11,722 nt of DNA from a virus (lineage: Duplodnaviria > Heunggongvirae > Uroviricota > Caudoviricetes): the IMG/VR virus record IMGVR_UViG_2671180606_000004, positions 1 through 11,722 of that record, one strand, 5' to 3'. Made by a program: the position numbers and the translations under genes. Below the pieces are notes generated by a model, which was not told the origin of the DNA, searched no databases, and saw only the letters and a program-made list of their open reading frames with translations. Numbering within the stretch: position 1 is the first letter of the stretch; the number at the start of each line of letters is the position of its first letter. Shown here piece after piece: positions 1-11,722 of this stretch.

Positions 1-94
1 TTACCTGATTTTCCAGAGTGCTGATCCGGGTGTCTGCTGTTGCCAGATTTTGACGTAGCGTTGTGTTTTCCTCTTCCAGCGCGGTAAGCGGATT
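1..94 (-). other. ORF fragment in a different frame from V (…[31 protein letters not shown]…), open from the V junction and running off the window start; coiled-coil-like; probably part of a distal gene joined to V by deletion
   Basis: Minus-strand frame opens after a stop at 95-97 and has no stop before position 1; heptad-like, protein-like composition; lambda V homology ends at about 88. Identity unknown. Confidence 0.35.
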
Positions 95-420
95 TTATAG
101 GCACGGGTATCACCTTCATTAAACCACGCCAGCAGCGCCTGCTGCCCCTGCTCTCCGGGCATCCACGCCAGCGTGAAGCTGGTATCTCCGGCAGATTTCT
201 GCCCCTGCCCGGTCGCAGTCCAGTCTGCATCTTCATCATCGAGATAGCTGTCGTCATAGGACTCAGCGGTCAGTTCGCCGGGCGTCAGGTCTTTAACTTT
301 TGCCAGACGCGACCAGTCAACGTCTGAAAGCGGGTTCGCATAAGGGTCACCGCTCCCCTTATAAACCCACAGGGTGGTCCCGGCACCTTTCACCGGCATT
401 ACAGGATTTGGTACAGGCAT
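1..420 (-). pseudogene. V: Phage lambda major tail protein V, N-terminal ~111 aa only; C-terminal half replaced by unrelated sequence (junction about position 88), reading to a stop at 1-3
   Basis: Translation from ATG 420-418 ([36 protein letters not shown]…[11 protein letters not shown]) matches lambda gpV N-terminus as recalled; after AYKIR it diverges ([12 protein letters not shown]…). Lambda gpV is about 246 aa. The track ORF begins at an upstream alternative start (450). Confidence 0.85.
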
Positions 421-427
421 AGCGTCC

Positions 428-823
428 TCACATTTCATAGGTAATGACATAAGTCAGATCGGCTGAACTCCACAGGCCCGCATCATCGTCGCGCCGGTAG
501 TCATAGCCACTGGCCACCATACTGGTGATCAAATCTGACAGTGCCGGGATATCGCTCATCACCGGATAAATCCGGGACTCCATCCACGAATCCAGCTCTG
601 AATCCGGCACCTGAGCAGGCAGGAAAACTTCAATATGCAGCTCCGCCTGCCAGGTATCGCTGTCCAGCTCTTCGCCCGTGTATTCAGCGCCGGTGAGATA
701 AACGGCAATTGCCGGAAAATCTTCCTCATCAAAAACAGCGGGGCGACCATCAAAAAGCGTCGCCCCGGTGTCATGCTTCTCCAGTGCATCCAGTACGGCT
801 GCACGGAGTTCAGTATGTTTCAT
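428..823 (-). CDS. U: Tail terminator protein U (lambda gpU), 131 aa
   Basis: Full-length near-identity to lambda gpU as recalled ([22 protein letters not shown]…LTYVITYEM); ATGA stop-start overlap with Z as in lambda. Confidence 0.95.
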
Positions 824-1398
824 CGCTTTATTACCATTCTCAGTTGATGCTGCAGCGCATAGCCCAGCTCTTTCGGAAGACGTTCACGCCGTATCCGTTC
901 AATATTCTGTTTAAACGCCGTGGTCAGCGGCACCGCCATCGGGATTTTCACCACATCAATGGGGTAACGGTTTTTCCCGGCCACACGCTGCATGACATGC
1001 CAGCGGCCATTTTTCAGTTGCTGAATAAACGCGCCGGGAATACGACGGTTACCCACCACAAGCACGCTGCCGCCATCTTTCAGGGCTGAACGCTGCCCCT
1101 TTTTACGACGCCTGCGTCGGGACAGGACAACCCGCGCGTTACCCAGCTTGATTACGGGCAAATCCCCCCGGTTAACCTTGATTCTGGCCTGTGGATTTTT
1201 GACCGTGGCCCTTTTCAGCCTGGCCCTTTCCTTTACCAGTTTCCGGCGTACCTTTGTCTCACGGGCAACCTGTGCCACCGACTGCGATATCGCGGATGAA
1301 GCAACGCGGTTAATGGCCATTGCGGCGGCACCGGGCACCGCCGTTCTGCTGATACGGCTGAGGTTTTCAACGGCCTGCTCAAGACCTTTTATGGCCAT
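820..1398 (-). CDS. Z: Tail completion protein Z (lambda gpZ), 192 aa
   Basis: Full-length near-identity to lambda gpZ as recalled (MAIKGLEQAVENLSRIS…HQLRMVIKR); GGGGGA Shine-Dalgarno upstream of ATG. Confidence 0.95.
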   Translation of the reverse strand: MAIKGLEQAVENLSRISRTAVPGAAAMAINRVASSAISQSVAQVARETKVRRKLVKERARLKRATVKNPQARIKVNRGDLPVIKLGNARVVLSRRRRRKKGQRSALKDGGSVLVVGNRRIPGAFIQQLKNGRWHVMQRVAGKNRYPIDVVKIPMAVPLTTAFKQNIERIRRERLPKELGYALQHQLRMVIKR

Positions 1399-1409
1399 AC
1401 ATCCCCCTT

Positions 1410-1763
1410 TCAGCGGCGACGGTTAACGGCAGGCGGTACGCCCCGCCCAAGCCAGAGATGACAGCTTCCGCCATCATCCGGCGAAATCCGGTCTATCCAG
1501 AAGTTTTCCTCACCGATGCTCAGCGTGTCGCCGCGCCGCAGCTGCCGCACATCATCAGTCCGGACAAACAGGGACGGGCTGGAGCCTTCAACGCGCACGC
1601 CCTGTCCGGCATAGCTGATATTTTCAGGGTCATCAAAAACACCACGTATTACTGCGCCGGACTGCTCACCGGATGTAATGGTGGCTGACGTTCCCATGTA
1701 CCCGCGTATCGTTTCATCGGCGCGGGCAATGGCGGCATCGAACAGGTTATCGAAATCAGCCAC
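1410..1763 (-). CDS. FII: Head-tail joining protein FII (lambda gpFII), 117 aa, GTG start
   Basis: Near-identity to lambda gpFII as recalled (MADFDNLFDAAIARADETIRGYMG…GRGVPPAVNRRR); GTG start with GGGAGG Shine-Dalgarno, as in lambda. Confidence 0.95.
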   Translation of the reverse strand: MADFDNLFDAAIARADETIRGYMGTSATITSGEQSGAVIRGVFDDPENISYAGQGVRVEGSSPSLFVRTDDVRQLRRGDTLSIGEENFWIDRISPDDGGSCHLWLGRGVPPAVNRRR

Positions 1764-1774
1764 AGCGCCTCCCG

Positions 1775-2170
1775 TTATTGCATTCTGGCCTGGCCGCGCT
1801 CTGTCATTTCGGCTGCCACACCGGCAGAGACACGAAACGCCGTTCCCGGCAGCACAAATGCCACAGCCTCATCCCGCGTGGCGTGAAGTGCATCAGTATG
1901 CAGCGTCACCAGTGCCACAACCGTGACCAGAGCAGCCGTATCAGTCACGGTATCCGTCTGTGCTGATACCACCTCATTTTCATGTCCGGTCAGTGCATTT
2001 TCCGGGCTGACAGACGTGTCCTGACCGGCTGCGTCATCCGTGTCATCAAGCTCCTCTTCCAGCTCTGCCACACGGAGCGCCAGTTCTTCTTTCGTCCCCG
2101 TCAGGCTGACATCACGGTTCAGTTGCTCACCCAGCGACCGGAGACGGGCAATCAGTTCATCTTTCGTCAT
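1775..2170 (-). CDS. FI: Head DNA-packaging/stabilisation protein FI (lambda gpFI)
   Basis: From ATG 2170-2168 (GGAGGAG Shine-Dalgarno upstream) the translation MTKDELIARLRSLGEQLNRDVSLTGTKEELALRVAEL… matches lambda gpFI as recalled; the track ORF starts at an upstream GTG (2209). Confidence 0.9.
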   Translation of the reverse strand: MTKDELIARLRSLGEQLNRDVSLTGTKEELALRVAELEEELDDTDDAAGQDTSVSPENALTGHENEVVSAQTDTVTDTAALVTVVALVTLHTDALHATRDEAVAFVLPGTAFRVSAGVAAEMTERGQARMQ

Positions 2171-2211
2171 GAACTCCTCCACAGAGAGAAAATGGCCCCG
2201 AAGGGCCACGA

Positions 2212-2748
2212 TTACGCCAGTTGTACGGAAACGAACTCATCAGGGTCAGCCAGCAGCATCAGCGGTGCTGACTGAATCATGGTGAACTCACGCGCCGGAT
2301 CGCCGGTGGTCACCCAGTTTTTCGGGTAACGGGCAGAGGCGTTAATGCCTTCGCGCTGTGCGTCCGCATCCTGAATGCAGCCATAGGTGCGCAGACCGCG
2401 AGCCTGAGTGTTCCCCAGCACCATCGTGTTGTCCGGCAGGAAGTTCTTTTTGACGCCGTTTTCCACGTACTGTCCGGAATACACGACGATGGCCACATCG
2501 CCATACATTCCCTTACCCTGGCGACGCGCCTTACGCGTTAACCAGCCTTCTGCTTCCAGCCGTGCGATAGCCGTTCTGACGGTACTCATCCCCGCGCCAA
2601 TCTGGCGGGCAATGGTTTCAATTGATGGCCAGCACACACCTTCGTCATTACTGAAATCAGCCAGGCGGGCCATAATTGCCACGCTGGATAATTTCATGCC
2701 TGACGCAGCGCAACCATCCCATACATAGCCGGTTAATTTAGTGCTCAT
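2212..2748 (-). CDS. Chimeric ORF: N-terminal ~78 aa winged-helix/HTH domain (HTH_36-like, as in phage replication-initiator proteins) fused in frame to the C-terminal ~100 aa of lambda major capsid protein E (E-derived part about 2212..2511)
   Basis: Residues from about 81 (MYGDVAIVVYSGQYVENGVKKNFLPDNTMVLGNTQARGLRTYGCIQDADAQREGINASARYPKNWVTTGDPAREFTMIQSAPLMLLADPDEFVSVQLA) match the lambda gpE C-terminus as recalled. Residues 1-78 (…SSVAIMARLADFSNDEGVCWPSIETIARQIGAGMSTVRTAIARLEAEGWLTRKARRQ) resemble the N-terminal DNA-binding domain of phage replication initiators. Lambda gpE is 341 aa, so its N-terminal ~240 aa are missing. Confidence 0.8.
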   Translation of the reverse strand: MSTKLTGYVWDGCAASGMKLSSVAIMARLADFSNDEGVCWPSIETIARQIGAGMSTVRTAIARLEAEGWLTRKARRQGKGMYGDVAIVVYSGQYVENGVKKNFLPDNTMVLGNTQARGLRTYGCIQDADAQREGINASARYPKNWVTTGDPAREFTMIQSAPLMLLADPDEFVSVQLA

Positions 2749-2757
2749 GACCGACCT

Positions 2758-3096
2758 CTATTTCCCTGAATTTACGACGAAACTGTTCGAGCGGGCTGAA
2801 GCACTCATGCTCATAGCCCTCGCGGAGGTAGATAACCCGTTGTGTTTCCGGCTCCCAACGAATGACTCTGACGGGCACTCCGTAGTGATCTTTGAACCAG
2901 CGGTTAACTTGTCGCAAAGGACTGTCTCCTTCTGCCGGTTGAAATCACCCACAGCCCACTCTGCAAAGCTGTGGGTTACAATTTCCCTGTCACCTGGTAC
3001 ATTCACTGCATAGCAATATTCCACCTTCGCTTTTCCACCCGGTACAGGAAGCGCAATCAGTTGCGAGCGACGGTAGTGTGTTGTTAAACTGTTCAT
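2758..3096 (-). CDS. Hypothetical early-operon protein; possibly frame-disrupted (C-terminal part may continue in the -1 frame to a stop at 2738-2740)
   Basis: ATG at 3096 overlaps the stop of the upstream cII-like gene (ATGA coupling). The N-terminal 50 aa look protein-like; the annotated frame ends in low-complexity sequence ([16 protein letters not shown]), while the -1 frame from about 2944 reads a convincing peptide (…[61 protein letters not shown]) whose stop overlaps the ATG of the next gene. Confidence 0.45.
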
Positions 3097-3701
3097 GCGT
3101 TAGTTTCTCCACAGTCACGACACGCCACGGCGCCCGGAGCTGCACACTCGCGGGCGTCATTACTTTCTGAAATGCAAAAAATTTTGTAGACCAGTGCTGC
3201 ATGCTCCTGCAGCTTCGAAATTGAGAGGTAGAGCTCGTCATTAATTGCTGTCTTCTCATGCGGTTCCACTACACCGTCTTCGATTGCTGAACGAATCTGT
3301 TTTGAATAACTGCCGATCTGTTCAATGACTTCCAGCAGACGCTGGTTAATATCGGCGTTGTCCACATCCTCGACGTCAGGAAGAGACACAAAGACGCCAT
3401 TTGCAGACTGCGCCACAGCATCAGCAATGAAGTGAGTTCCACCAGCACGTTGCAAAATCATTGCCCATCCCAGCGGGAAAATCTGATCGCCATCGGCACG
3501 AAGGCGGTTAAATAATGCGTTCTCTGTTACATCCAGCCAGTCAGCAGCTTCAGCGTAACCCCCCGGCAACGCTGCGATAGTTTTTCTGACAGCTTTCACG
3601 TACCACTCAGGCTGTTTTTCTACTTTCCAGTGATGCTTACCCACGGTTAGCCTCATCGTTCTGTGGTTTCTGTTAATCGATTTATCCATTAGATTTTTCA
3701 T
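3093..3701 (-). CDS. Early regulatory protein in the cII position (CII/CP76-like or YdaT-like; family uncertain), about 202 aa
   Basis: ORF immediately downstream of the cro-like gene in the same operon. Start set at ATG 3701 (or 3689) rather than the track start 3758, which would overlap cro by 77 nt. Family assignment is by position and loose resemblance only. Confidence 0.55.
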
Positions 3702-3882
3702 AAAGCTCAGGTTTAAATGGCAACCGTCCGCAAGTTCTATATGCAGCTTCTGCTGCACGTCCTTTTGGAATTAACTGGCCCGGACGGTTTCGCCACTGAT
3801 AAACGGCTTCAGTTGTTATGCCGAAAAAAGCAGCAACTTTCTCAATACTGCCGAAGTAGCTTTCGATATCGTCAGTTGTCAT
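3682..3882 (-). CDS. Cro-like small HTH repressor (Cro/YdaS-type), 66 aa
   Basis: Small ORF divergent from the CI-like repressor; motif …[45 protein letters not shown] typical of Cro/YdaS-family proteins; GGAGGG Shine-Dalgarno upstream. Confidence 0.8.
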   Translation of the reverse strand: MTTDDIESYFGSIEKVAAFFGITTEAVYQWRNRPGQLIPKGRAAEAAYRTCGRLPFKPELYEKSNG

Positions 3883-3979
3883 ACGCCCTCCAAACTAAGT
3901 TTTATTAGATGCTAATTACAAATCTATCTTTGGTCAATAAAAACTAAGATTACTTAGTAATTAAAGAAATGGTGCTCCT
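3883..3979. promoter_or_regulatory. Divergent cI/cro intergenic control region: palindromic operator candidate ACTAAG-ATTA-CTTAGT (3943..3958), inverted repeat ATTAG-N3-CTAAT (3904..3916), two AACTAAG copies, candidate cro promoter on minus strand (-35 TTGACC 3932..3937, -10 TAGCAT 3909..3914)
   Basis: 97-bp AT-rich spacer between divergent repressor genes; perfect 6-4-6 palindrome; sigma70-like hexamers with 17-bp spacing read on the minus strand. Promoter assignment is by eye. Confidence 0.5.
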
Positions 3980-4606
3980 ATGGAAACGGTTGGTCAGCGT
4001 ATAAAAGCTCTGAGAAGAGTTACCAGAACGTCCCAGAAAGAATTGGGTAAATTTTGTGGAGTAAGCGACGTTGCTGTGGGGTACTGGGAGAAAGACATCA
4101 ATACCCCTGGTGGGGAGGCACTTTCGAAATTAGCGAAGTTCTTCAATACGTCAATAGATTACATTCTTTATGGTGCTGAGTTTGAAGGCAAACTCGTCAC
4201 AAACATGCGCAGAGTTCCTGTAATATCGTGGGTTCAGGCTGGGCAGTTTACTGAGTGCAGGGCAGCAGAAGTGTTTAGTGAAGTGGACAAGTGGGTAGAT
4301 ACATCATTAAAGATTGGTGATAACTCATTTGCATTAGAGGTTAAAGGTGACTCCATGACTAACCCTAATGGCCTCCCAACAATACCAGAAGGCGCAACAG
4401 TGATTGTAGATCCAGATGCAGAACCTCGTCATGGAAAAATAGTCATCGCTCGACTTGATGGAACAAACGAAGCTACAGTAAAAAAATTAGTCATCGATGG
4501 CCCTCAAAAGTTTTTAGTGCCATTAAATCCTCGGTATCCCAACATCCCTATCAATGGTAATTGCCTTATCATTGGTGTAGTCAAAGGAGTTCAATACGAA
4601 CTCTAA
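3980..4606 (+). CDS. CI-like prophage repressor: N-terminal XRE-type HTH plus C-terminal S24 (LexA/CI-type) autopeptidase domain, 208 aa
   Basis: HTH motif (QKELGKFCGVSDVAVGYWEKD…), catalytic Ser in GDSM and Lys in KKL with spacing typical of S24 peptidases; divergent from the cro-like gene. Confidence 0.9.
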   Translation: METVGQRIKALRRVTRTSQKELGKFCGVSDVAVGYWEKDINTPGGEALSKLAKFFNTSIDYILYGAEFEGKLVTNMRRVPVISWVQAGQFTECRAAEVFSEVDKWVDTSLKIGDNSFALEVKGDSMTNPNGLPTIPEGATVIVDPDAEPRHGKIVIARLDGTNEATVKKLVIDGPQKFLVPLNPRYPNIPINGNCLIIGVVKGVQYEL

Positions 4607-4690
4607 GACCTCTCTTCTCTAACTAAGGCACCGAACTAAGAAAAGTTTGGTGTTTTCTCTTGCCATAATAACTAAGTTAAGTTAGATTTT
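4607..4690 (+). promoter_or_regulatory. Candidate pL-like promoter/operator region downstream of the repressor gene: three direct AACTAAG repeats (4621, 4634, 4670) and possible -35 TTGCCA (4660..4665) / -10 TAGATT (4683..4688)
   Basis: Same heptamer as in the cI/cro spacer; hexamers with 17-bp spacing on the plus strand, pointing away from cI. By-eye call. Confidence 0.3.
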
Positions 4691-4812
4691 ATGTCAAAGA
4701 TAACGAACAGGCAGGACGCCCACGAAGTAGCCGCCTGGGGCATATGAAGTCCAGGATGATTCGTTGAGTCATGTTGTGCCACTAGGCACTCATGTTAAAG
4801 CAGGTGTATGAA

Positions 4813-5088
4813 ATGAAAGTCCAGATTTTAAACAATAACTGTGAAGTCGTTTGGTCATACGACATAGCCGCCCATGTAGATCAGAGCGGCGATAGCTGGG
4901 CCAATGGGAAACATCAGATTATGGCTGGAGTTGTATTCTCTTTACGCCGTGCTTTAGAACAGGCTGAAGTCTTTCCATCAGACCCTGAATGGAAATGGCC
5001 TTTTTCTATTTGTCCAAATTCGGAGAGTACATTTCAGAAAATTGGTCAGAAAGTCGCACTCGAAGAGCATCAGCCAACTGTTTCCTGA
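4813..5088 (+). CDS. Hypothetical protein, 91 aa (first ORF downstream of the repressor, N position of a lambdoid map; no N-like Arg-rich motif)
   Basis: ORF with AGGTG Shine-Dalgarno 7 nt upstream of ATG 4813 (track start 4792 lacks one). Its 3' end is overlapped by an equally plausible antisense frame (5006..5263, minus), so the call is uncertain. Confidence 0.4.
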   Translation: MKVQILNNNCEVVWSYDIAAHVDQSGDSWANGKHQIMAGVVFSLRRALEQAEVFPSDPEWKWPFSICPNSESTFQKIGQKVALEEHQPTVS

Positions 5089-5504
5089 TTTTTTCAGGTA
5101 ACTCGTCGGCATCGCAGAAACAACAACGCTCGATCATGTTGAAAGCCGATTCGTAGAACTGTTTTTGCTGAGTGTCGCTGAGACAGGAAAAGAGCGACGT
5201 TACGATGATTTTATTAATTGCATTATCAAGTTCTTTTTCATCAAAAGTTATTTGATTTTCCTTTTATGTATACGGGCTTAAAAGGATACCACCGAGCCTG
5301 AAGTGGTGAAAAGACAGGCACATAACAGCTAAGTATTTTCAACCAGAGAGAATCCTTAGCGTTGTGGTGAATGCGGCTCAGCGCACGCGGGTTAAGGTTG
5401 AGGCTGACAGTCGACCTTCTGTGGATACCCACCCGCCTGGTGTGCAACCTTCGCCAGGCACCGGGAGGCACCCGGCACCACAACTTTATGCTGTGTGTAG
5501 TCCT

Positions 5505-5552
5505 GGCGGTACCAGTTTGTACACTTGCTTCCGGCTGGTACCGCTCTTTTTA
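5505..5552 (+). terminator. Rho-independent terminator candidate: perfect 10-bp stem GCGGTACCAG/CTGGTACCGC, 19-nt loop, followed by TCTTTTTA
   Basis: Base pairing checked position by position (5506-5515 with 5535-5544); U-tract immediately 3' on the plus strand. Lies in an ORF-poor spacer upstream of the yfdP-like gene. Confidence 0.5.
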
Positions 5553-5688
5553 CAAAACAGAGAAGAGCATCACCGGACGACGGGCTCATAACCCAATCCA
5601 TCCGGGCGGCTGCCACCGCAGGTGTTCTTCTCTGTTTTGTGGAGAAACTAATCGGCCTTGCAGGGTCGATATGATGAGGAGCAACAAA

Positions 5689-6051
5689 ATGGCTAGCGAA
5701 CGCAGTACTGATGTGCAGGCATTTATCGGGGAGCTGGACGGCGGCGTATTTGAAACAAAAATCGGCGCAGTTCTCAGTGAAGTCGCTTCCGGTGTGATGA
5801 ACACGAAAACCAAAGGTAAGGTCTCACTCAACCTGGAAATCGAACCATTTGATGAGAACCGTGTGAAAATCAAACACAAACTCTCATATGTTCGCCCGAC
5901 TAACCGCGGGAAAATTTCCGAAGAAGACACCACCGAAACGCCGATGTATGTCAATCGCGGTGGTCGCCTGACTATTCTGCAGGAAGACCAGGGACAATTA
6001 CTGACTCTTGCCGGTGAACCTGACGGAAAACTCCGCGCAGCAGGTCATTAA
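5689..6051 (+). CDS. yfdP: YfdP-like hypothetical prophage protein, 120 aa
   Basis: ATG 5689 with GAGGAG Shine-Dalgarno 8 nt upstream; size and position match the yfdP-yfdQ-yfdR-yfdS block of CPS-53 as recalled. The track ORF start at 5371 is an upstream read-through of non-coding-looking sequence. Confidence 0.75.
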   Translation: MASERSTDVQAFIGELDGGVFETKIGAVLSEVASGVMNTKTKGKVSLNLEIEPFDENRVKIKHKLSYVRPTNRGKISEEDTTETPMYVNRGGRLTILQEDQGQLLTLAGEPDGKLRAAGH

Positions 6052-6116
6052 TATCGTTCTTAATTAACTGATTATTTATTTCATCACTGAATATCTTTAT
6101 ATAGTGAGGACTTATT

Positions 6117-6941
6117 ATGTCTCAGAACTTAGACGCAACCGCAATTAATCAAATCCATGCCCTTATTTCTGCTCAGGGTGTTAATGAAATTATCAGTAAG
6201 ATTGGTGCCGATGCTGTGGCATTGCCTGAGAATTTCCGCATTCATGATCTGGAAAAATTTAATTTAAATCGCTTCCGTTTCCGTGGTGCGCTTTCCACTG
6301 CCAGCATCGATGACTTTACCCGTTATTCTAAAGATCTTGCAGATGAAGGCACCCGCTGCTTTATCGATGCTGATAATATGCGTGCCGTCAGTGTGCTTAA
6401 CCTGGGTACTATTGATGAACCAGGTCACGCAGATAACACCGCCACTCTCAAACTGAAAAAGACAGCACCGTTCTCTGCTCTGTTGTCTGTTAATGGCGAG
6501 CGTAACTCCCAGAAATCACTGGCAGAATGGATTGAAGACTGGGCTGACTACCTTGTGGGCTTTGATGCTAATGGTGACACCATTCAGGCAACAAAAGCGG
6601 CTGCGGCGGTCCGTAAAATCACGATTGAAGCAAACCAGACCGCTGATTTTGAAGATAATGACTTCAGCGGCAAACGCTCCCTGATGGAGTCTGTCGAAGC
6701 GAAGACCAAAGACATTATGCCAGTGGCATTTGAATTTAAATGCATTCCGTTTGAAGGTCTGAAAGAACGTCCGTTTAAATTACGCCTCAGCATTATCACT
6801 GGCGATCGTCCGGTACTGGTTCTGCGCATTATTCAGCTGGAGGCGGTGCAGGAAGAAATGGCTAACGAATTTCGTGATCTGCTTGTTGAGAAATTCAAGG
6901 ACAGCAAAGTAGAAACCTTTATTGGTACTTTCACCGCCTGA
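6117..6941 (+). CDS. yfdQ: YfdQ-like hypothetical prophage protein (DUF2303-type), 274 aa
   Basis: Well-formed ORF with GAGGA Shine-Dalgarno; length and neighbourhood match K-12 YfdQ as recalled. Confidence 0.8.
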
Positions 6942-6953
6942 TTTCATTACTGC

Positions 6954-6981
6954 AAATGCCCCTGCGGGGGCATTTATGGAA
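6954..6981 (+). terminator. Hairpin AAATGCCCC-TGCG-GGGGCATTT (perfect 9-bp stem, 4-nt loop) downstream of the yfdQ-like gene; possible terminator or attenuator
   Basis: Perfect inverted repeat 6954-6962 / 6967-6975 with GC-rich core; only a short U-tract follows. Confidence 0.4.
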
Positions 6982-7068
6982 ACGTAATTGACTCAATAAT
7001 CGCCGGGTGGTGGGGGCTTCCTTTTACCAGAATTCAGCGCGGTGCAGCGCATATACGTGGAGAACAAA

Positions 7069-7605
7069 ATGTCATTTATTAAAACTTTTTCCGGGAAGCA
7101 TTTTTATTATGACAGGATAAATAAAGACGACATCGTTATTAACGATATCGCGGTTTCCCTTTCAAATATCTGCCGCTTTGCAGGACACCTTTCACACTTC
7201 TACAGCGTCGCCCAACATGCGGTGCTTTGCAGCATGCTGGTACCGCAGGAATTTGCTTTTGAAGCATTAATGCATGATGCAACAGAAGCGTATTGCCAGG
7301 ACATCCCCGCACCACTGAAACGCCTCCTTCCTGACTATAAACGGATGGAAGAAAAAATAGACGCCGTAATCCGTGAGAAATACGGGTTACCTCAGGCTAT
7401 GAGCACGCCCGTGAAATATGCCGATCTCATCATGCTGGCAACCGAACGCCGCGATCTCGGGCTTGATGATGGCTCTTTCTGGCCTGTACTGGAAGGTATC
7501 CCGGCAACAGAGATGTTCAACGTGATTCCACTGGCACCGGGCCATGCCTATGGGATGTTTATGGAACGCTTCAACGAGTTATCGGAGTTACACAAATACG
7601 CATAA
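7069..7605 (+). CDS. yfdR: HD-domain phosphohydrolase (YfdR-like, 5'-deoxynucleotidase-type), 178 aa
   Basis: H…HD…D motif (AQHAVLCS…LMHDATEAYCQDIP…); start at ATG 7069 (MSFIKTFSGKHFYYD…) with GGAG Shine-Dalgarno, rather than track start 7042; size matches K-12 YfdR as recalled. Confidence 0.85.
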   Translation: MSFIKTFSGKHFYYDRINKDDIVINDIAVSLSNICRFAGHLSHFYSVAQHAVLCSMLVPQEFAFEALMHDATEAYCQDIPAPLKRLLPDYKRMEEKIDAVIREKYGLPQAMSTPVKYADLIMLATERRDLGLDDGSFWPVLEGIPATEMFNVIPLAPGHAYGMFMERFNELSELHKYA

Positions 7606-7616
7606 ATGTTTTCGAA

Positions 7617-7957
7617 ATGGAAGGGTTTCTTCGCGGGAAATGTGTACCGCGAGATCTGAAAGTGAATGAAACAGATGCTGAATACCTGGTACGTAAATTC
7701 GATGCGCTTGAAGCTAAATGTGCAGCACTGGAAAAAAAGTAATACCAGTGTCAGCTGAACTGCCGCCAGCAAATGAAAGTGTTCTGTTATTTGATGCTAA
7801 TGGAGAAGGCTGGCTGATTGGCTGGCGTTCTCTCTGGTACACATGGGGGCAAAAAGAAACCGGAGAATGGCAGTGGACATTCCAGGTCGGGGACCTTGAA
7901 AACGTCAATATCACTCACTGGGCAGTAATGCCGAAAGCACCGGAGACTAAGAAATGA
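7617..7957 (+). pseudogene. yfdS: YfdS-like gene split into two frames at an A7 tract: 7617..7742 (41 aa, stop TAA) and the -1 frame continuing to 7957; frameshift mutation, homopolymer sequencing error or programmed -1 frameshift
   Basis: Upstream frame MEGFLRGKCVPRDLKVNETDAEYLVRKFDALEAKCAALEKK ends at TAA directly after the heptamer A AAA AAG (7733..7739); the -1 frame continues VIPVSAELPPANESVLLFDANGEGWLIGW… to 7957. Combined length about 114 aa (K-12 YfdS is 120 aa as recalled). Confidence 0.6.
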
Positions 7958-8169
7958 GCGTGATAAAAACTCATACAGGAATTGTTATCACGCAAGACGG
8001 TGACAAGCGGATGAAATTACATTCTACTGAAATGTCCTGGGTTGCCGGACGTTGTGAATCCTACGACAAAAAGACTGGTTACCATTGGGGGGCGCCAAAC
8101 ATGCGTCGCCGTCTGCTCCTGGACAGAATCAGGCCAATTAAACAGGTAGCAACCAGAGAGCAAAATTAA
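7954..8169 (+). CDS. Small hypothetical prophage protein, 71 aa (yfdT position)
   Basis: ATGA stop-start overlap with the preceding gene; GGAG Shine-Dalgarno 8 nt upstream. Confidence 0.6.
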   Translation: MSVIKTHTGIVITQDGDKRMKLHSTEMSWVAGRCESYDKKTGYHWGAPNMRRRLLLDRIRPIKQVATREQN

Positions 8170-8231
8170 TTATCAGGACTGGAATTTGATATTACTGCCC
8201 GTGTGCAGCGGGCTAAGTGGAGAAAAGACTC

Positions 8232-8456
8232 ATGAGCAACCGCTTCCTGACTGATGAAGAACTGATAGAGGCGACAGGGTCTTCCCAAAAGTCACTACAG
8301 AAAGAAGTCTTAACGCAGAATGGCATTTTTTTTATTGAACGCAGGGACGGTTCTGTAAAAACGACCTGGTTTCATATAAATCATCCCATTCATCGTTTGG
8401 CTCCACCAGCAGGTTTCTCGCCCACTCCGGGTATGAACTTTGATGCTATAGAGTGA
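8232..8456 (+). CDS. Putative excisionase / recombination directionality factor (small protein directly upstream of int), 74 aa
   Basis: ATG 8232 with GGAG Shine-Dalgarno (track start 8217 is GTG); stop 5 nt before int. Function inferred from position, size and N-terminal motif MSNRFLTDEELIEATG…; not similar to lambda Xis. Confidence 0.55.
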   Translation: MSNRFLTDEELIEATGSSQKSLQKEVLTQNGIFFIERRDGSVKTTWFHINHPIHRLAPPAGFSPTPGMNFDAIE

Positions 8457-8460
8457 AATT

Positions 8461-9447
8461 ATGGGTCGAAAACGAGCACCTGGTAATGAATGGATGCCGA
8501 AGGGGGTATATTTCCGCCCTTCTGGCTACTACTGGAAACCAGGGGGAACAACAGAAAAAATTGCATCAGCCAATGCAACAAAAGCAGATGTCTGGGTTGC
8601 TTTTGAAAAAATTGTAGAGGGGAGAAAAAGACGAATAACTTTTGCCCAGCTTTGGAAGAAATTTCTCAATAGTGCCGATTATGCAGATTTGGCACCACGA
8701 ACTCAAAAGGATTATCTAGCCCACGAAAAATATCTCCTTGCTGTTTTTGGCGAAGCGGAAGCAAAGACTATTAGACCAGAACATGTAAGGCGGTATATGG
8801 ATGCCAGAGGAAAGAAAAGTCGTGTCCAAGCTAACCATGAGCACAGTTCAATGTCTCGGGTATTTCGTTGGGGATACCAACGAGGATATGTTCCTGGAAA
8901 TCCTTGCGTTGGAGTAGATAAATTCCCTAAACCAAAGCGTGATCGCTACATCACAGATGAGGAATACATGGCGATTTATGAACACGCCAGTGAGCCAGTT
9001 AAAGCCGCAATGGAAATAGCTTATTTATGTGCAGCGAGGGTATCCGATGTCTTGAAAATGGACTGGCCGCAGATAATGGATAAAGGAATTTTTATTCAGC
9101 AGGGCAAGACGGGAGTTAAGCAGATCAAGGCGTGGACTGATCGCCTGCGCGCGGCAGTTGATATTTGCAGATCGTGGGGGGAAACAGGGTCAGTAATTAA
9201 AACCATGTATGGAGAGCGTTACTCTTACAAGGGGTTTAATGAGGCATGGCGAAAAGCAAGAACAGCGGCAGCCAACTATCTTGGAAGACCTCTGGATTGT
9301 ACATTTCATGATCTGAAAGCTAAAGGAATTTCTGACTATGAAGGATCATCAAAAGAAAAGCAGCTATTTAGTGGGCACAAAACTGAATCACAAGTCATGG
9401 TTTATGATAGAAAAATACGCATCACACCAACATTAAATAAAAATTAG
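8461..9447 (+). CDS. int: Tyrosine site-specific integrase, lambda Int family, 328 aa
   Basis: Aligns with lambda Int as recalled: N-terminal MGRKR…GYYW arm-binding region, catalytic-domain landmarks AARVSDV (Arg-I), QGKTGVK (Lys), TFHDLK (box II His), GHK, VMVYDR (Tyr nucleophile). Confidence 0.95.
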   Translation: MGRKRAPGNEWMPKGVYFRPSGYYWKPGGTTEKIASANATKADVWVAFEKIVEGRKRRITFAQLWKKFLNSADYADLAPRTQKDYLAHEKYLLAVFGEAEAKTIRPEHVRRYMDARGKKSRVQANHEHSSMSRVFRWGYQRGYVPGNPCVGVDKFPKPKRDRYITDEEYMAIYEHASEPVKAAMEIAYLCAARVSDVLKMDWPQIMDKGIFIQQGKTGVKQIKAWTDRLRAAVDICRSWGETGSVIKTMYGERYSYKGFNEAWRKARTAAANYLGRPLDCTFHDLKAKGISDYEGSSKEKQLFSGHKTESQVMVYDRKIRITPTLNKN

Positions 9448-9451
9448 ACTC

Positions 9452-9473
9452 TAAGTGCGCGTTAGCGCACTTA
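9452..9473. terminator. Perfect inverted repeat TAAGTGCGC-GTTA-GCGCACTTA between convergent int and the AT-rich operon; candidate bidirectional terminator
   Basis: 9-bp perfect stem with 4-nt loop in the 23-bp gap between convergent stops; the stop codon of the 265-aa gene lies in the 3' arm; T-rich flank on the plus side. Confidence 0.4.
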
Positions 9474-10268
9474 TTCAAATAGTTCAGGGAATACTAATTG
9501 TAGTGAATTCATGAATTTATCAATATCTTCAGGAGGTTCTTGCTCACGAAACCACTTGTCACACACTTCATTGACATAAATTTTCGCTTGTCCGACCTTC
9601 AAGGATTTATTCTCTCGTCCACTTTTATCAGCAGGGTTATAGTGCAAACTTAAAATAAAATTTCTAACCTTTACTTCTTTTCCCTTTTTTGAAACTATAT
9701 TGTAGTCAAAATAACATTCATCACCGGTAAACGCATTTGCTATGGGGCTCTTTTTAAAATGATATCGGCACTCATCAAGCCTATCAGAAATAGCCTTATA
9801 TTTTTCAAAATCACCAGAGCTAAGGTAGCTGAACCAATTTTTAAAGTAACTTAATGAATCAAGTTTCTGATGGTAAATAAAGAAACCTGCATGTTTCTCA
9901 TCAGAAATATATCTTGTTACTAACTGTAACATGCCTTCAAAGACACCATTATACGAATTCCCTCTTTTTGCTTCAGCGAGCCAAGTAAAGCTCTGATCAC
10001 GATCCTGAACTGTAATATCGACGGAACCATTAGATTTTGTTTGTTCAGATGCGTTGTACCCAACACCTTTGAGAAATAAAACCAGTAAATTAGTGATCTT
10101 ATCTTCATCATCTGAATAATATTTATCCGCAGTCTTCTCAATATGCTTAATTGCATTATTTATATCGGCATATAGACTTTGTACAAACACATCCTCATCG
10201 AATGGCTTCAAGTTTACCAGCGCGGCTAATTCGGCAGGTGTTATATTTTGAAGAAAATTATTTGACAT
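9471..10268 (-). CDS. Hypothetical protein, 265 aa, third gene of the AT-rich operon; possible PD-(D/E)xK nuclease-like core (…GSVDITVQD…FTWLAEAKRG…)
   Basis: Long ORF in a visibly AT-rich segment; ATG overlaps the stop of the upstream gene by 11 nt. The D…E-x-K spacing is the only motif recognised and is an inference. Confidence 0.7.
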   Translation of the reverse strand: MSNNFLQNITPAELAALVNLKPFDEDVFVQSLYADINNAIKHIEKTADKYYSDDEDKITNLLVLFLKGVGYNASEQTKSNGSVDITVQDRDQSFTWLAEAKRGNSYNGVFEGMLQLVTRYISDEKHAGFFIYHQKLDSLSYFKNWFSYLSSGDFEKYKAISDRLDECRYHFKKSPIANAFTGDECYFDYNIVSKKGKEVKVRNFILSLHYNPADKSGRENKSLKVGQAKIYVNEVCDKWFREQEPPEDIDKFMNSLQLVFPELFE

Positions 10269-10689
10269 TTAATATACAGTAAAAAGAAATGTTATTAACA
10301 TCGAAATCATCTATTTCGCGCCCAGACAATAAACTGATCGGAGAAATATCACAAATCAGAGCATTATAGTAGCATTCTGCTGAAATAGGGATTTCTTCAC
10401 CATCAAAATCATAATAGCAATAAGTTATATTAAATAATTTAGAATGTGCACCACAAAAATAACGGACTAACTTTAGCAAATCCGAGTCCGATTCACAGCC
10501 TGCCGCTTGCCTTAATACATTAATCGGGTAATAATTTTTATCATAATTATTTTGAATGAAATCCAAAACATTATTGAATAGAAAGATATCTTCTTCAGGA
10601 AAGATATCTTTCATTTCATCCAATAATATCCTTTGTTCAGACAAAAGCATCATTATGACCTTGATTCTATCATTTTCGTGAGATGACAT
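10258..10689 (-). CDS. Hypothetical protein, about 143 aa, middle gene of the AT-rich operon
   Basis: ORF overlapping both neighbours (about 20 nt upstream, 11 nt downstream), suggesting translational coupling; start taken at ATG 10689 (track start 10695 is TTG). No family recognised. Confidence 0.65.
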   Translation of the reverse strand: MSSHENDRIKVIMMLLSEQRILLDEMKDIFPEEDIFLFNNVLDFIQNNYDKNYYPINVLRQAAGCESDSDLLKLVRYFCGAHSKLFNITYCYYDFDGEEIPISAECYYNALICDISPISLLSGREIDDFDVNNISFYCILNVK

Positions 10690-11722
10690 TTTCAATTAAA
10701 CCATTTAATGAGATTGTATCTTCAGGAAAATCAACATAAAATTCGCCACAAAAATTATCATCCAACCAAGATTTCTTATTTGGATCTAGACCCAATTCTG
10801 TAAAGTCACCATTATTTCTGTAAAATCTTACGGCTACAGCACGTGGTGTATAAATATCATTTCTTTTCTTATTAGTAATCTCGACATCTCGAGCTTCATA
10901 TGTCGGATCTTTGCGGCCAATGACATTAGCATCACAACCTGTATTAGAACCAACATAAATTATCTGAACTGCTTTCCCGAACGATCTATCAGTAATAATG
11001 CTATTGATCACATTATAAAAATTCAATTGTTTGAAATGAATAGTATTATTAGTACTGATGAGCATATCAAAAAATTTATTACGCACCGATGCAAGCGCTT
11101 TTGCTGTCTCCCGTTTCCCTAAATTTTTTGGAAGACGATACTCGATCCTATTTTTATTATGGGGAACAAATACTGTTATAAATTGTTGCTGTGGGGTATA
11201 CGATAGTCCTAAACCGCGACTTCCCTTAATCTTAACACTATAAACATATGAGAAAATAAAAGCAAAGCCATCGCCAGTATCAATTAATTTAGTCAGATAA
11301 AGACCTTTGATATTGTTCCCAAGTGAATTACCATCATATAACTTTCTTGGATAAGAATTTTCATACCTTGAATCAGTTACACTTGTACTAAAAACATGTT
11401 GGATCACACTTTGGAAATTTGGGTCTTGTGTTTCGTCAATAGAATAATAGTGACTACCAGAGATTATTATTCTATCGATCATTTTCTCAAGTGAATTTAA
11501 TGTAGCATTAGGAAATGCAGCTGTTGGATTCTGTATAGATGCCTCGATTGCCTTCAAAACCGCATCCATTCCACCTTTAACAGGTGGAAATCCATACACA
11601 GTTGCTATCTGAGAAATAAATGAATATAGATTGGTCTGCTCAAGCGCAGTAATCAAATCAGATAATACTTGTTGACTATTGTTGGCAACAACAGGCGTAG
11701 CAAATGCGCTAGATGAATTCAT
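10670..11722 (-). CDS. Hypothetical protein, at least 350 aa, first gene of the AT-rich operon; the ATG coincides with the last 3 nt of the window, so the true start and promoter may lie beyond the window
   Basis: Uninterrupted 350-codon frame in an AT-rich segment; no Walker or other catalytic motif recognised by eye. Confidence 0.7.
   Translation of the reverse strand: MNSSSAFATPVVANNSQQVLSDLITALEQTNLYSFISQIATVYGFPPVKGGMDAVLKAIEASIQNPTAAFPNATLNSLEKMIDRIIISGSHYYSIDETQDPNFQSVIQHVFSTSVTDSRYENSYPRKLYDGNSLGNNIKGLYLTKLIDTGDGFAFIFSYVYSVKIKGSRGLGLSYTPQQQFITVFVPHNKNRIEYRLPKNLGKRETAKALASVRNKFFDMLISTNNTIHFKQLNFYNVINSIITDRSFGKAVQIIYVGSNTGCDANVIGRKDPTYEARDVEITNKKRNDIYTPRAVAVRFYRNNGDFTELGLDPNKKSWLDDNFCGEFYVDFPEDTISLNGLIENVISRK

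Follow-up and report, generated by a model that had tools for sequence, protein, structure and literature searches.

We analysed a stretch of 11,722 nucleotides (nt) from a Caudoviricetes virus (IMG/VR record IMGVR_UViG_2671180606_000004, positions 1 to 11,722), hereafter called the window, in which an open reading frame (ORF) on the minus strand (2212..2748) joins part of a replication gene, O, to part of a capsid gene, E. The encoded protein of 178 amino acids (aa) is an exact match to KXQ26990.1, which is annotated as a 'hypothetical protein' of Escherichia coli. An earlier note, made from the sequence alone, had read this ORF as an in-frame chimera of the DNA-binding domain of a replication initiator with the C-terminal third of the lambda capsid protein gpE, and both halves were recovered in the database comparisons. 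Pfam placed HTH_36 at residues 23-70 and Phage_cap_E (PF03864) at residues 76-176, the latter over profile positions 228-328 of 329 (E = 2.7e-23), and PHROGs assigned residues 1-81 to positions 1-81 of phrog_391 ('replication initiation O-like') and residues 79-177 to 'major head protein'. Over residues 1-78 the protein is identical to an O-like replication initiator, of which this is the winged-helix N-terminus. The O-derived part (2513..2748, minus strand) contains the whole winged-helix/HTH_36 domain and matches the first 236 nt of an intact O-like gene (942 nt) in E. coli MLI104K1 (L001:5295-6236(-)) at 100% nucleotide identity. Because of this identity, the opposing reading of the ORF as a divergent but complete capsid gene was rejected. 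The gpE-derived part (2212..2515, minus strand) consists of the last 100 codons and the stop of a lambda-type major capsid gene, and residues 79-178 of the fusion are 100% identical to residues 242-341 of lambda gpE (PDB 7vi9_A). On a larger scale, window 82-2515 showed 98.7% identity to a lambda-type E-FI-FII-Z-U-V block, and window 2513-11722 matched the left arm of the intact MLI104K1 prophage at 99%.

A three-way alignment with both parents placed the junction at 2513..2515 (minus strand), at codon 78/79. It is in frame, as had been claimed, and the earlier position (about 2508-2514, about codon 81) required a small correction. At this point the parents have 3 nt in common, which read TTA on the plus strand and, in the coding direction, TAA (O nt 234-236); the crossover lies within or beside this TAA. 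The identical junction was found on two contigs of ~50 kb from two independent E. coli draft assemblies with different accessions, and over the 11,722 nt of the window the 50-kb contig of GCA_030004355.1 shows a single-nucleotide difference. It was absent from 5,426 complete E. coli genomes and from the GTDB species representatives (one genome per species). An assembly or sequencing artefact, in which fragments of two prophages were joined into a chimeric contig, had been named as the finding that would undo the fusion; prophages are repeat-rich, draft assemblies are prone to misjoins in them, and no complete genome was seen to carry the junction. Misassembly is nevertheless very unlikely because a stretch of 3 nt, all that the parents have in common at the join, is too little for a misjoin in an assembly graph. 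In addition, two assemblies with different accessions agree on the junction with a single difference in 11.7 kb, and its anatomy is the same as that of junctions in finished genomes (K-12, ETEC4073, LZHX12). We therefore regard an artefact as having a negligible probability.

Neither half retains the parts by which its family is defined. Only residues 242-341 of gpE are present and the N-terminal two thirds of the ~341-aa chain are absent; an intact parent-type E protein matches the PF03864 profile from position 1 to 328. The fusion thus shares 100 of the 341 residues with lambda gpE, to which these are identical, but lacks residues 1-241 and is not a capsid protein. With the O-like initiators, such as the 313-aa 'DNA replication protein O' of phage PhiR29_1, it shares the complete and identical HTH_36 winged-helix domain. 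Residues 79-313 are absent from this half, although the intact O protein matches phrog_391 over positions 1-298 of 298, and the origin iterons, which lie within the intact gene at nt ~293-449, are missing as well, since they are located beyond the break at nt 236. Initiation of replication is therefore impossible. Because each half is without its defining parts, the fusion ORF is functionally a member of neither the capsid nor the initiator family.

The probable parent prophage and its deletions

The longer contig (L003) revealed the whole element in which the fusion resides. It is bounded by 88-bp att repeats beside tRNA-Ser/mtfA and zinT and has a size of ~17 kb. A prophage of 42 kb, flanked by the same repeats, occupies the identical attachment site in MLI104K1. 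The left part of the element carries three genes of unassigned family, int, a DUF4224 gene, yfdR, yfdQ, yfdP and a cI-like repressor gene, followed in the middle by cro, ymfL, ymfM/DUF4222, the fusion, FI, FII, Z, U and a truncated V, and on the right by stf and tfa remnants, OloA, OloB and an IS4 remnant. In the MLI104K1 prophage, the same early region is followed by an intact O gene (313 aa), nin-type genes, Q, lysis genes and HK97/Mu-like late genes. The required combination of this early region with lambda-type late genes was found in PhiR29_1, an isolated and viable phage, whose collinear genome reads int, yfdR/Q/P, cI, cro, ymfL, ymfM, O, nin-type genes, Q, lysis and Nu1-A-W-B-C-D-E-FI-FII-Z-U-V.

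When the O-E junction was mapped onto PhiR29_1, it corresponded to one collinear deletion of 16,766 bp, which removes the iterons, the nin genes, Q, the lysis genes, the terminase, portal, protease and D genes and E codons 1-241. One deletion of ~16.8 kb explains the fusion because the order of early and late genes in PhiR29_1 is identical. The comparison with related intact phages, collinear PhiR29_1 and MLI104K1 with its intact O, thus upheld both the single deletion from inside the replication gene into E that the earlier note had proposed and its list of losses (replication, nin, Q, lysis, packaging and most head genes); the element has at least one further deletion, however. The junction of this second deletion lies at window 86|85 (CGCTT|ACCGCG; bars mark the break). 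Here V, the major tail gene, was cut after about codon 111; what is left of it at the 5' end (V', ~111 codons, 86..420, minus strand) was joined out of frame to the end of the side-tail-fibre gene stf, of which a remnant remains (1..85, minus strand). The join creates a V' ORF of 139 aa with its stop at window 1-3.

The element as a whole is without an origin, the helicase-loading part of O, Q, lysis genes, terminase, portal, protease and D; E codons 1-241 and the tail genes past V' are missing as well. It cannot replicate, lyse its host or form particles. We propose, with a probability of roughly 85%, that the ORF is the scar of a deletion in a lambdoid prophage that is integrated beside tRNA-Ser and is in decay. 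The parent would have combined an e14/SfII-type early region (int, yfdR/Q/P, cI, cro, ymfL, ymfM, O) with lambda-type late genes. A deletion of ~17 kb, which would not have needed extended homology, would then have joined O after nt 234-236 to E codon 242, probably in frame by chance, and the second deletion would have joined V to stf out of frame.

It speaks against this account that no immediate parent with >=99% identity in both arms could be found and that the best match for E (99.4%, ETEC1720) belongs to prophages whose early region is of the lambda O/P type. Because the immediate parent was not found, some probability has to be left for illegitimate recombination between two prophages, an e14/SfII-type one at tRNA-Ser and a lambda-type one elsewhere. 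In line with such an exchange, the only intact relative found at the tRNA-Ser site (MLI104K1) has Mu-like/HK97 late genes, and the best matches to the E-V block occur in prophages with another early region and attachment site. We nonetheless judge it improbable. PhiR29_1 shows that a viable hybrid phage with the required order exists, and two simple collinear deletions in one such hybrid are enough to produce the element, whereas an exchange would additionally delete or invert the chromosome between the prophages. The lambda-type block is followed by the stf-tfa'-OloA-OloB-IS4 right end, which abuts the attR repeat of the tRNA-Ser site; the same succession of late block and right end is present in WP5-S17-ESBL-10, behind another early region. 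Moreover, all other mapped events at the O breakpoint described below are deletions within one prophage.

A recurrent breakpoint in O

The closest relatives of the fusion were found in two cryptic prophages of E. coli K-12. In e14, ymfN is annotated as a 'chimeric replication protein/phage terminase', with an O remnant (oweE) of 234 nt. The O allele is shared between e14 and the window and is broken at nt 234 and nt 234-236, respectively. YmfN (oweE/aaaE) has identical residues 1-78 and the same upstream genes (ymfT/cro, ymfL, ymfM), and it was likewise joined in frame to the C-terminal part of a late gene through an internal prophage deletion. The window's ORF has all features of this type of chimera: a collinear deletion has fused O(1-78), at nt ~234, to the interior of a phage gene farther downstream, in a prophage without lytic functions and with ~17 kb between its att repeats. 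Accordingly, it is one more chimeric ORF from an internal prophage deletion, with K-12 YmfN as its nearest relative. The two differ in the partner, which for YmfN comes from an HK97/Mu-like late module (terminase, large subunit; 9.2-kb deletion) and for the fusion is gpE (~16.8 kb), in the sequence shared at the junction (GGT versus TAA) and in distribution, e14 being fixed in K-12 and widespread and the fusion being present in two assemblies. A remnant of the same O gene, yfdO (oweS), is found in CPS-53, where the break falls on the same nucleotide (...CATCA|TAACCGC) but the opposite side was kept: nt 234-942 remain, and a leftward deletion took the immunity region and the N-terminal domain of O. 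A further junction in e14, between beeE and jayE, is also of the GGTA type and represents a 12.7-kb deletion relative to MLI104K1.

The breakpoint shared by these elements was found to be recurrent. At the nucleotide level, T234|A235, inside the site GGGT|AACC (hot-spot site HS1), was reused by at least 21 independent deletions in viral and metagenome contigs and complete genomes, 16 of them retaining the left side of O and five the right side, and it falls within every HS1 crossover interval. Four further junctions were assigned to a second site, HS2. All mappable junctions are same-orientation deletions of 1.3 to 29 kb, and the breakpoint was used in both directions in prophages with differing integrases and attachment sites (e14 at icd, CPS-53 at argW and the present element at tRNA-Ser). 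The window retains a hybrid remnant of HS1, GGGT|AAGG (2511..2518, minus strand), together with intact copies of HS2 (GGCT|ATCG, O nt 177-184; 2565..2572, minus strand) and of a minor hot-spot site, HS3 (GGTT|AACG, O nt 206-213; 2536..2543, minus strand). No description of the hot spot was found in the literature searched, in which older phage work is thinly covered.

The same position stood out at the protein level. A search with the 78-residue domain, which returned proteins of at most 137 aa, yielded 85 distinct proteins of the same allele with a foreign tail. Divergence begins after G78 in 54 of these, after A60 in ~17, after L70 in two and elsewhere in ~11; 54 of 85 on one of 58 codons compares with an expectation of 1.5 per codon (P ~5e-73). 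The 54 G78 fusions carry 49 distinct tails, some of which derive from DUF968, RusA, Q, both terminase subunits, gpW, a baseplate gene, an IS3 transposase or O's own C-terminus, and many others are out-of-frame read-through. The first tail codon begins with A in 48 of the 49 tails.

Other kinds of variation were observed in the same region. About ten short proteins are frameshifted readings of O and not rearrangements. In locus L077, an otherwise intact-looking O gene has lost 1 nt in the GGG run of HS1 (O nt 231-233), which causes a frameshift. The copy number of the origin iterons inside O (nt 340-373) varies by indels in a 15-nt register among otherwise intact phages (L037, L054, L061, L073, L090, L124). 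In the nin-type region (L005 8541-9521 compared with many loci), whole genes, e.g., a methyltransferase gene, are present or absent and are bounded by ATGA stop/start overlaps; these joints are a separate class from the T|A deletions.

The hot positions coincide with a short motif. In O nt 1-420, GNTANC occurs only three times, with its T|A step at 180|181, 209|210 and 234|235, which are the three hot positions, and all three sites fit (C/G)GNTANC(C/G). The motif recurs on the other side of the junctions. Among 26 distinct partner sites, T is present at -1 and A at +1 in 24 sites each; G occupies -3 in 18 and C occupies +3 in 19, while -4 is G or C in 19 sites and +4 likewise in 19. GNTANC is found in 11 of 22 TA partners, compared with 9% of TA sites in the phage genome. 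In a catalogue of deletions from ~150 related loci, partner sites also recombine with each other, and deletions that do not involve O, including beeE/jayE of e14, join GG.TA-type sites. The partner sites in RusA (CCGGAT|AACC) and DUF968 (GCGGAT|ACCG) serve both HS1 and HS2. Both junctions in the window pair a good with a weak site: GGGT|AACC in O with CTAT|AAGG in E, and CGTT|ACCG in stf, which fits (C/G)GNT|ANC(C/G), with GCTT|CCCG in V. The E partner (TAT|AAG) fits the motif poorly, and the position of the crossover is fixed on the O side.

One explanation for these patterns is that (C/G)G(R)T|A(Y)C(C/G) sites are targets of a sequence-preferring activity in E. coli that breaks, or breaks and rejoins, DNA at the central T|A and leads to joining with a second T|A site; in the window the second site would be the weak TAT|AAG in E. 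Such an activity would give nucleotide-precise deletions, could be one of the main ways in which hybrid lambdoid prophages and those of the e14/SfII/CPS-53 type are trimmed, and would be the source of the window's fusion, of YmfN and YfdO and of the beeE/jayE junction in e14. We put this forward tentatively, at clearly less than even odds.

A simpler process could have produced the same junctions, namely ordinary microhomology-mediated deletion combined with sampling, ancestry or selection and without any sequence-specific activity. The junctions have 2-9 nt of common sequence, and the partner sites resemble HS1, as short-homology recombination predicts. Some junctions recur across samples, which points to resampled lineages, and as each deletion leaves a hybrid site in place, successive deletions in the descendants of one ancestor could use that site again. 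Several observations do not agree with this explanation. Near-matching downstream sequences are average or below average in number for HS1-3, and other O positions with more matches are cold; the abundance of short homologies thus fails to explain the hot spots, because these show no excess of near-matches. Positions -2 and +2 of the partners are unmatched to O, whereas -3 and +3 match, and the second base after G78, which is A in O, is T in 21, C in 15, A in only 10 of 48 and G in two cases. The use of the breakpoint in both directions under differing integrases and attachment sites, and the fact that deletions not touching O join the same kind of site, are likewise difficult to reconcile with homology alone. 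We consider it unlikely that microhomology accounts for the whole pattern, yet it is a serious competitor to a sequence-preferring break.

It was also considered whether the motif could reflect the position of HS1 at a codon boundary. This was rejected, as HS3 lies within a codon and the junctions from the DNA scan were not selected for frame; codon structure can account for only part of the G..T|A..C bias.

The case for a sequence-preferring activity is weakened by several points. The motif is a preference and not a rule, because the E partner fits it poorly and the e14 partner has G at +1. It was in part derived from the very sites that it then 'predicts', and the enrichment among partners could partly be due to similarity to HS1 and to codon structure (RNY codon pairs). 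Resampled lineages are present among the junctions, and E. coli dominates the databases. Finally, no enzyme was found to fit when Pin, the determinants of gyrase and topoisomerase IV, and GajA were compared with the motif by eye. The crossover sites of the Pin invertase in a related prophage (AAACC-TT/AA-GGTTT) are unlike HS1, and no inversions were seen, so that action of Pin at pseudo-sites was rejected. For subunit exchange by gyrase or topoisomerase IV, we saw no simple register in which the published type IIA determinants (cutting before G; -4G/+8C, -2A/+6T, -1T/+5A) map onto the motif, and the site of the Gabija nuclease GajA, AATAACCNGGTTATT, was not matched. It may be added that (C/G)GNTANC(C/G) has been published as the 'non-permissive' context for insertion of the Himar1 mariner transposon at TA sites, which may be a coincidence or may reflect a shared property of DNA shape; in the literature searched, GNTANC appeared in this connection only.

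The motif itself is short, palindrome-like and frequent, with ~67 copies per phage genome. Other candidates were set aside because they did not appear to agree with where the break lies: a Dcm/Vsr site (CCAGG, O nt 228-232), a BstEII-type site (GGTAACC), a small upstream hairpin, a Ter-like core, the ends of insertion sequences (IS), and the cleavage preferences of RusA and RuvC. Deletion hot spots at fixed DNA ends are known from rolling-circle nick sites, from the terB fork barrier and from recombinases acting at secondary sites. HS1 resembles these in having one end-point fixed to the nucleotide and variable partners with short resemblance, and in producing deletions only; it is unlike them in that both sides of the break are used and the motif is short and frequent. 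We know of no nickase, fork barrier or recombinase that acts at the HS1 site.

Operon context, function and meaning

The fusion lies in an operon whose gene order, as the earlier note had stated, is cro-like, cII-like, small ORF, fusion, FI, FII, Z, U and V; it is not fully intact, as V is truncated. All of these genes are on the minus strand. A match to a pR-like sigma-70 promoter, based on consensus only, is located at 3909..3937 (minus strand) upstream of the Cro-like gene (P22_Cro, 3682..3882). It is followed by the YmfL/cII-like gene (Phage_CP76, 3093..3644; 183 aa according to the annotation of relatives), a YmfM-like ORF (112 aa, phrog_1170, 2758..3096) and a DUF4222 ORF (59 aa, Pfam and phrog_1343, 2738..2917), the end of which overlaps the start of the fusion by 11 nt; intact relatives show the same overlap. 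The ATG of the fusion is preceded, at a distance of 6 nt, by a GAGG Shine-Dalgarno sequence, and directly after the stop of the fusion a GC-rich hairpin followed by a T-run (2192..2209, minus strand) represents the native E-FI intergenic stem-loop. Downstream, Pfam identified FI (DNA packaging, 1775..2170), FII (head-tail joining, 1410..1763), Z (minor tail, 820..1398) and U (tail terminator, 428..823). The cI-like repressor gene is on the plus strand (3980..4606), and its S24 self-cleavage domain is intact.

With its native ribosome-binding site, the start overlap, the promoter-like site before cro and the 3' hairpin retained, the fusion would be transcribed together with cro once the cI-like repressor is cleaved after DNA damage. 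Because it lies inside the cro operon, it should be made only upon such cleavage. The predicted product would consist of a complete winged-helix DNA-binding domain, whose cognate iterons were lost with the rest of O, and a 100-residue capsid fragment without gpE residues 1-241. The fusion is most likely a by-product without function. It shows no sign of selection, because only two near-identical assemblies carry exactly this fusion. It has to be weighed against this conclusion that it was drawn from rarity, in two near-identical assemblies, and from anatomy.

A function could lie in interference with other phages, and the fusion would then be a domesticated gene, kept because it protects the host. 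Two routes can be envisaged. The capsid fragment could poison head assembly of superinfecting lambda-type phages, as the earlier note had speculated, or the orphan O domain could occupy the iterons of incoming phages of the same specificity and block their replication. It would fit such a role that the fusion is in frame, has kept its ribosome-binding site and lies in an operon switched on by DNA damage, that the winged-helix domain is complete, and that many independent deletions, including the one that made YmfN in e14, leave exactly this 78-residue domain as an ORF. However, the exact fusion is confined to two near-identical assemblies, and one join in three is expected to be in frame; V and stf, in the same element, were joined out of frame. 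Of the 49 tails that follow G78, many resemble out-of-frame read-through, so the partner appears to be irrelevant. The same breakpoint also serves deletions that discard the N-terminal domain (yfdO of CPS-53 and four others), and because of this, retention of the domain follows from the position of the break. In addition, repression by cI would keep the gene silent during phage infection, and the capsid fragment is without the first 241 residues of gpE. Capsid interference with superinfecting phages has no support, and a protective role by either route appears highly improbable to us.

The neighbouring genes gave some further observations. The YmfM-like and DUF4222 ORFs (window 2738-3096, minus strand) overlap by 160 nt in different frames, and annotations call either. 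The YmfM homologue of e14 is an SOS-inducible inhibitor of cell division, and by analogy the YmfM homologue upstream of the fusion may be more important to the host than the fusion. An ORF of 98 aa between the repressor gene and yfdP (4792-5088, plus strand) has no family match, and the interval that holds it varies among relatives. Between the integrase gene and the tRNA-Ser attachment site (9471-11722, minus strand) lie three genes (265, 145 and 350 aa), which are also present in MLI104K1, gave no match in Pfam or PADLOC and may be prophage cargo. Among the genes scanned with PADLOC, a set that did not include the fusion, only two outside the window gave a match: the genes of 574 and 567 aa at the right end of the element (L003:13277-16706) match OloA and OloB, a candidate defence system. 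OloA/OloB and the IS4 remnant form the end of two unrelated phage types, with Mu-like (MLI104K1) and lambda-type (WP5-S17-ESBL-10) late genes.

Taken alone, the fusion is a further chimeric pseudogene of prophage decay and matters little. The main interest is in the breakpoint that it shares with other prophages, which the earlier note had not seen. The erosion of prophages is commonly pictured as a series of random deletions on which selection acts as a filter. In contrast, one nucleotide position in a replication gene was here reused by dozens of independent deletions. If a sequence-preferring activity is indeed responsible, it would provide a mechanism by which lysogens disarm their prophages, and it would explain the anatomy of two textbook cryptic prophages of K-12.

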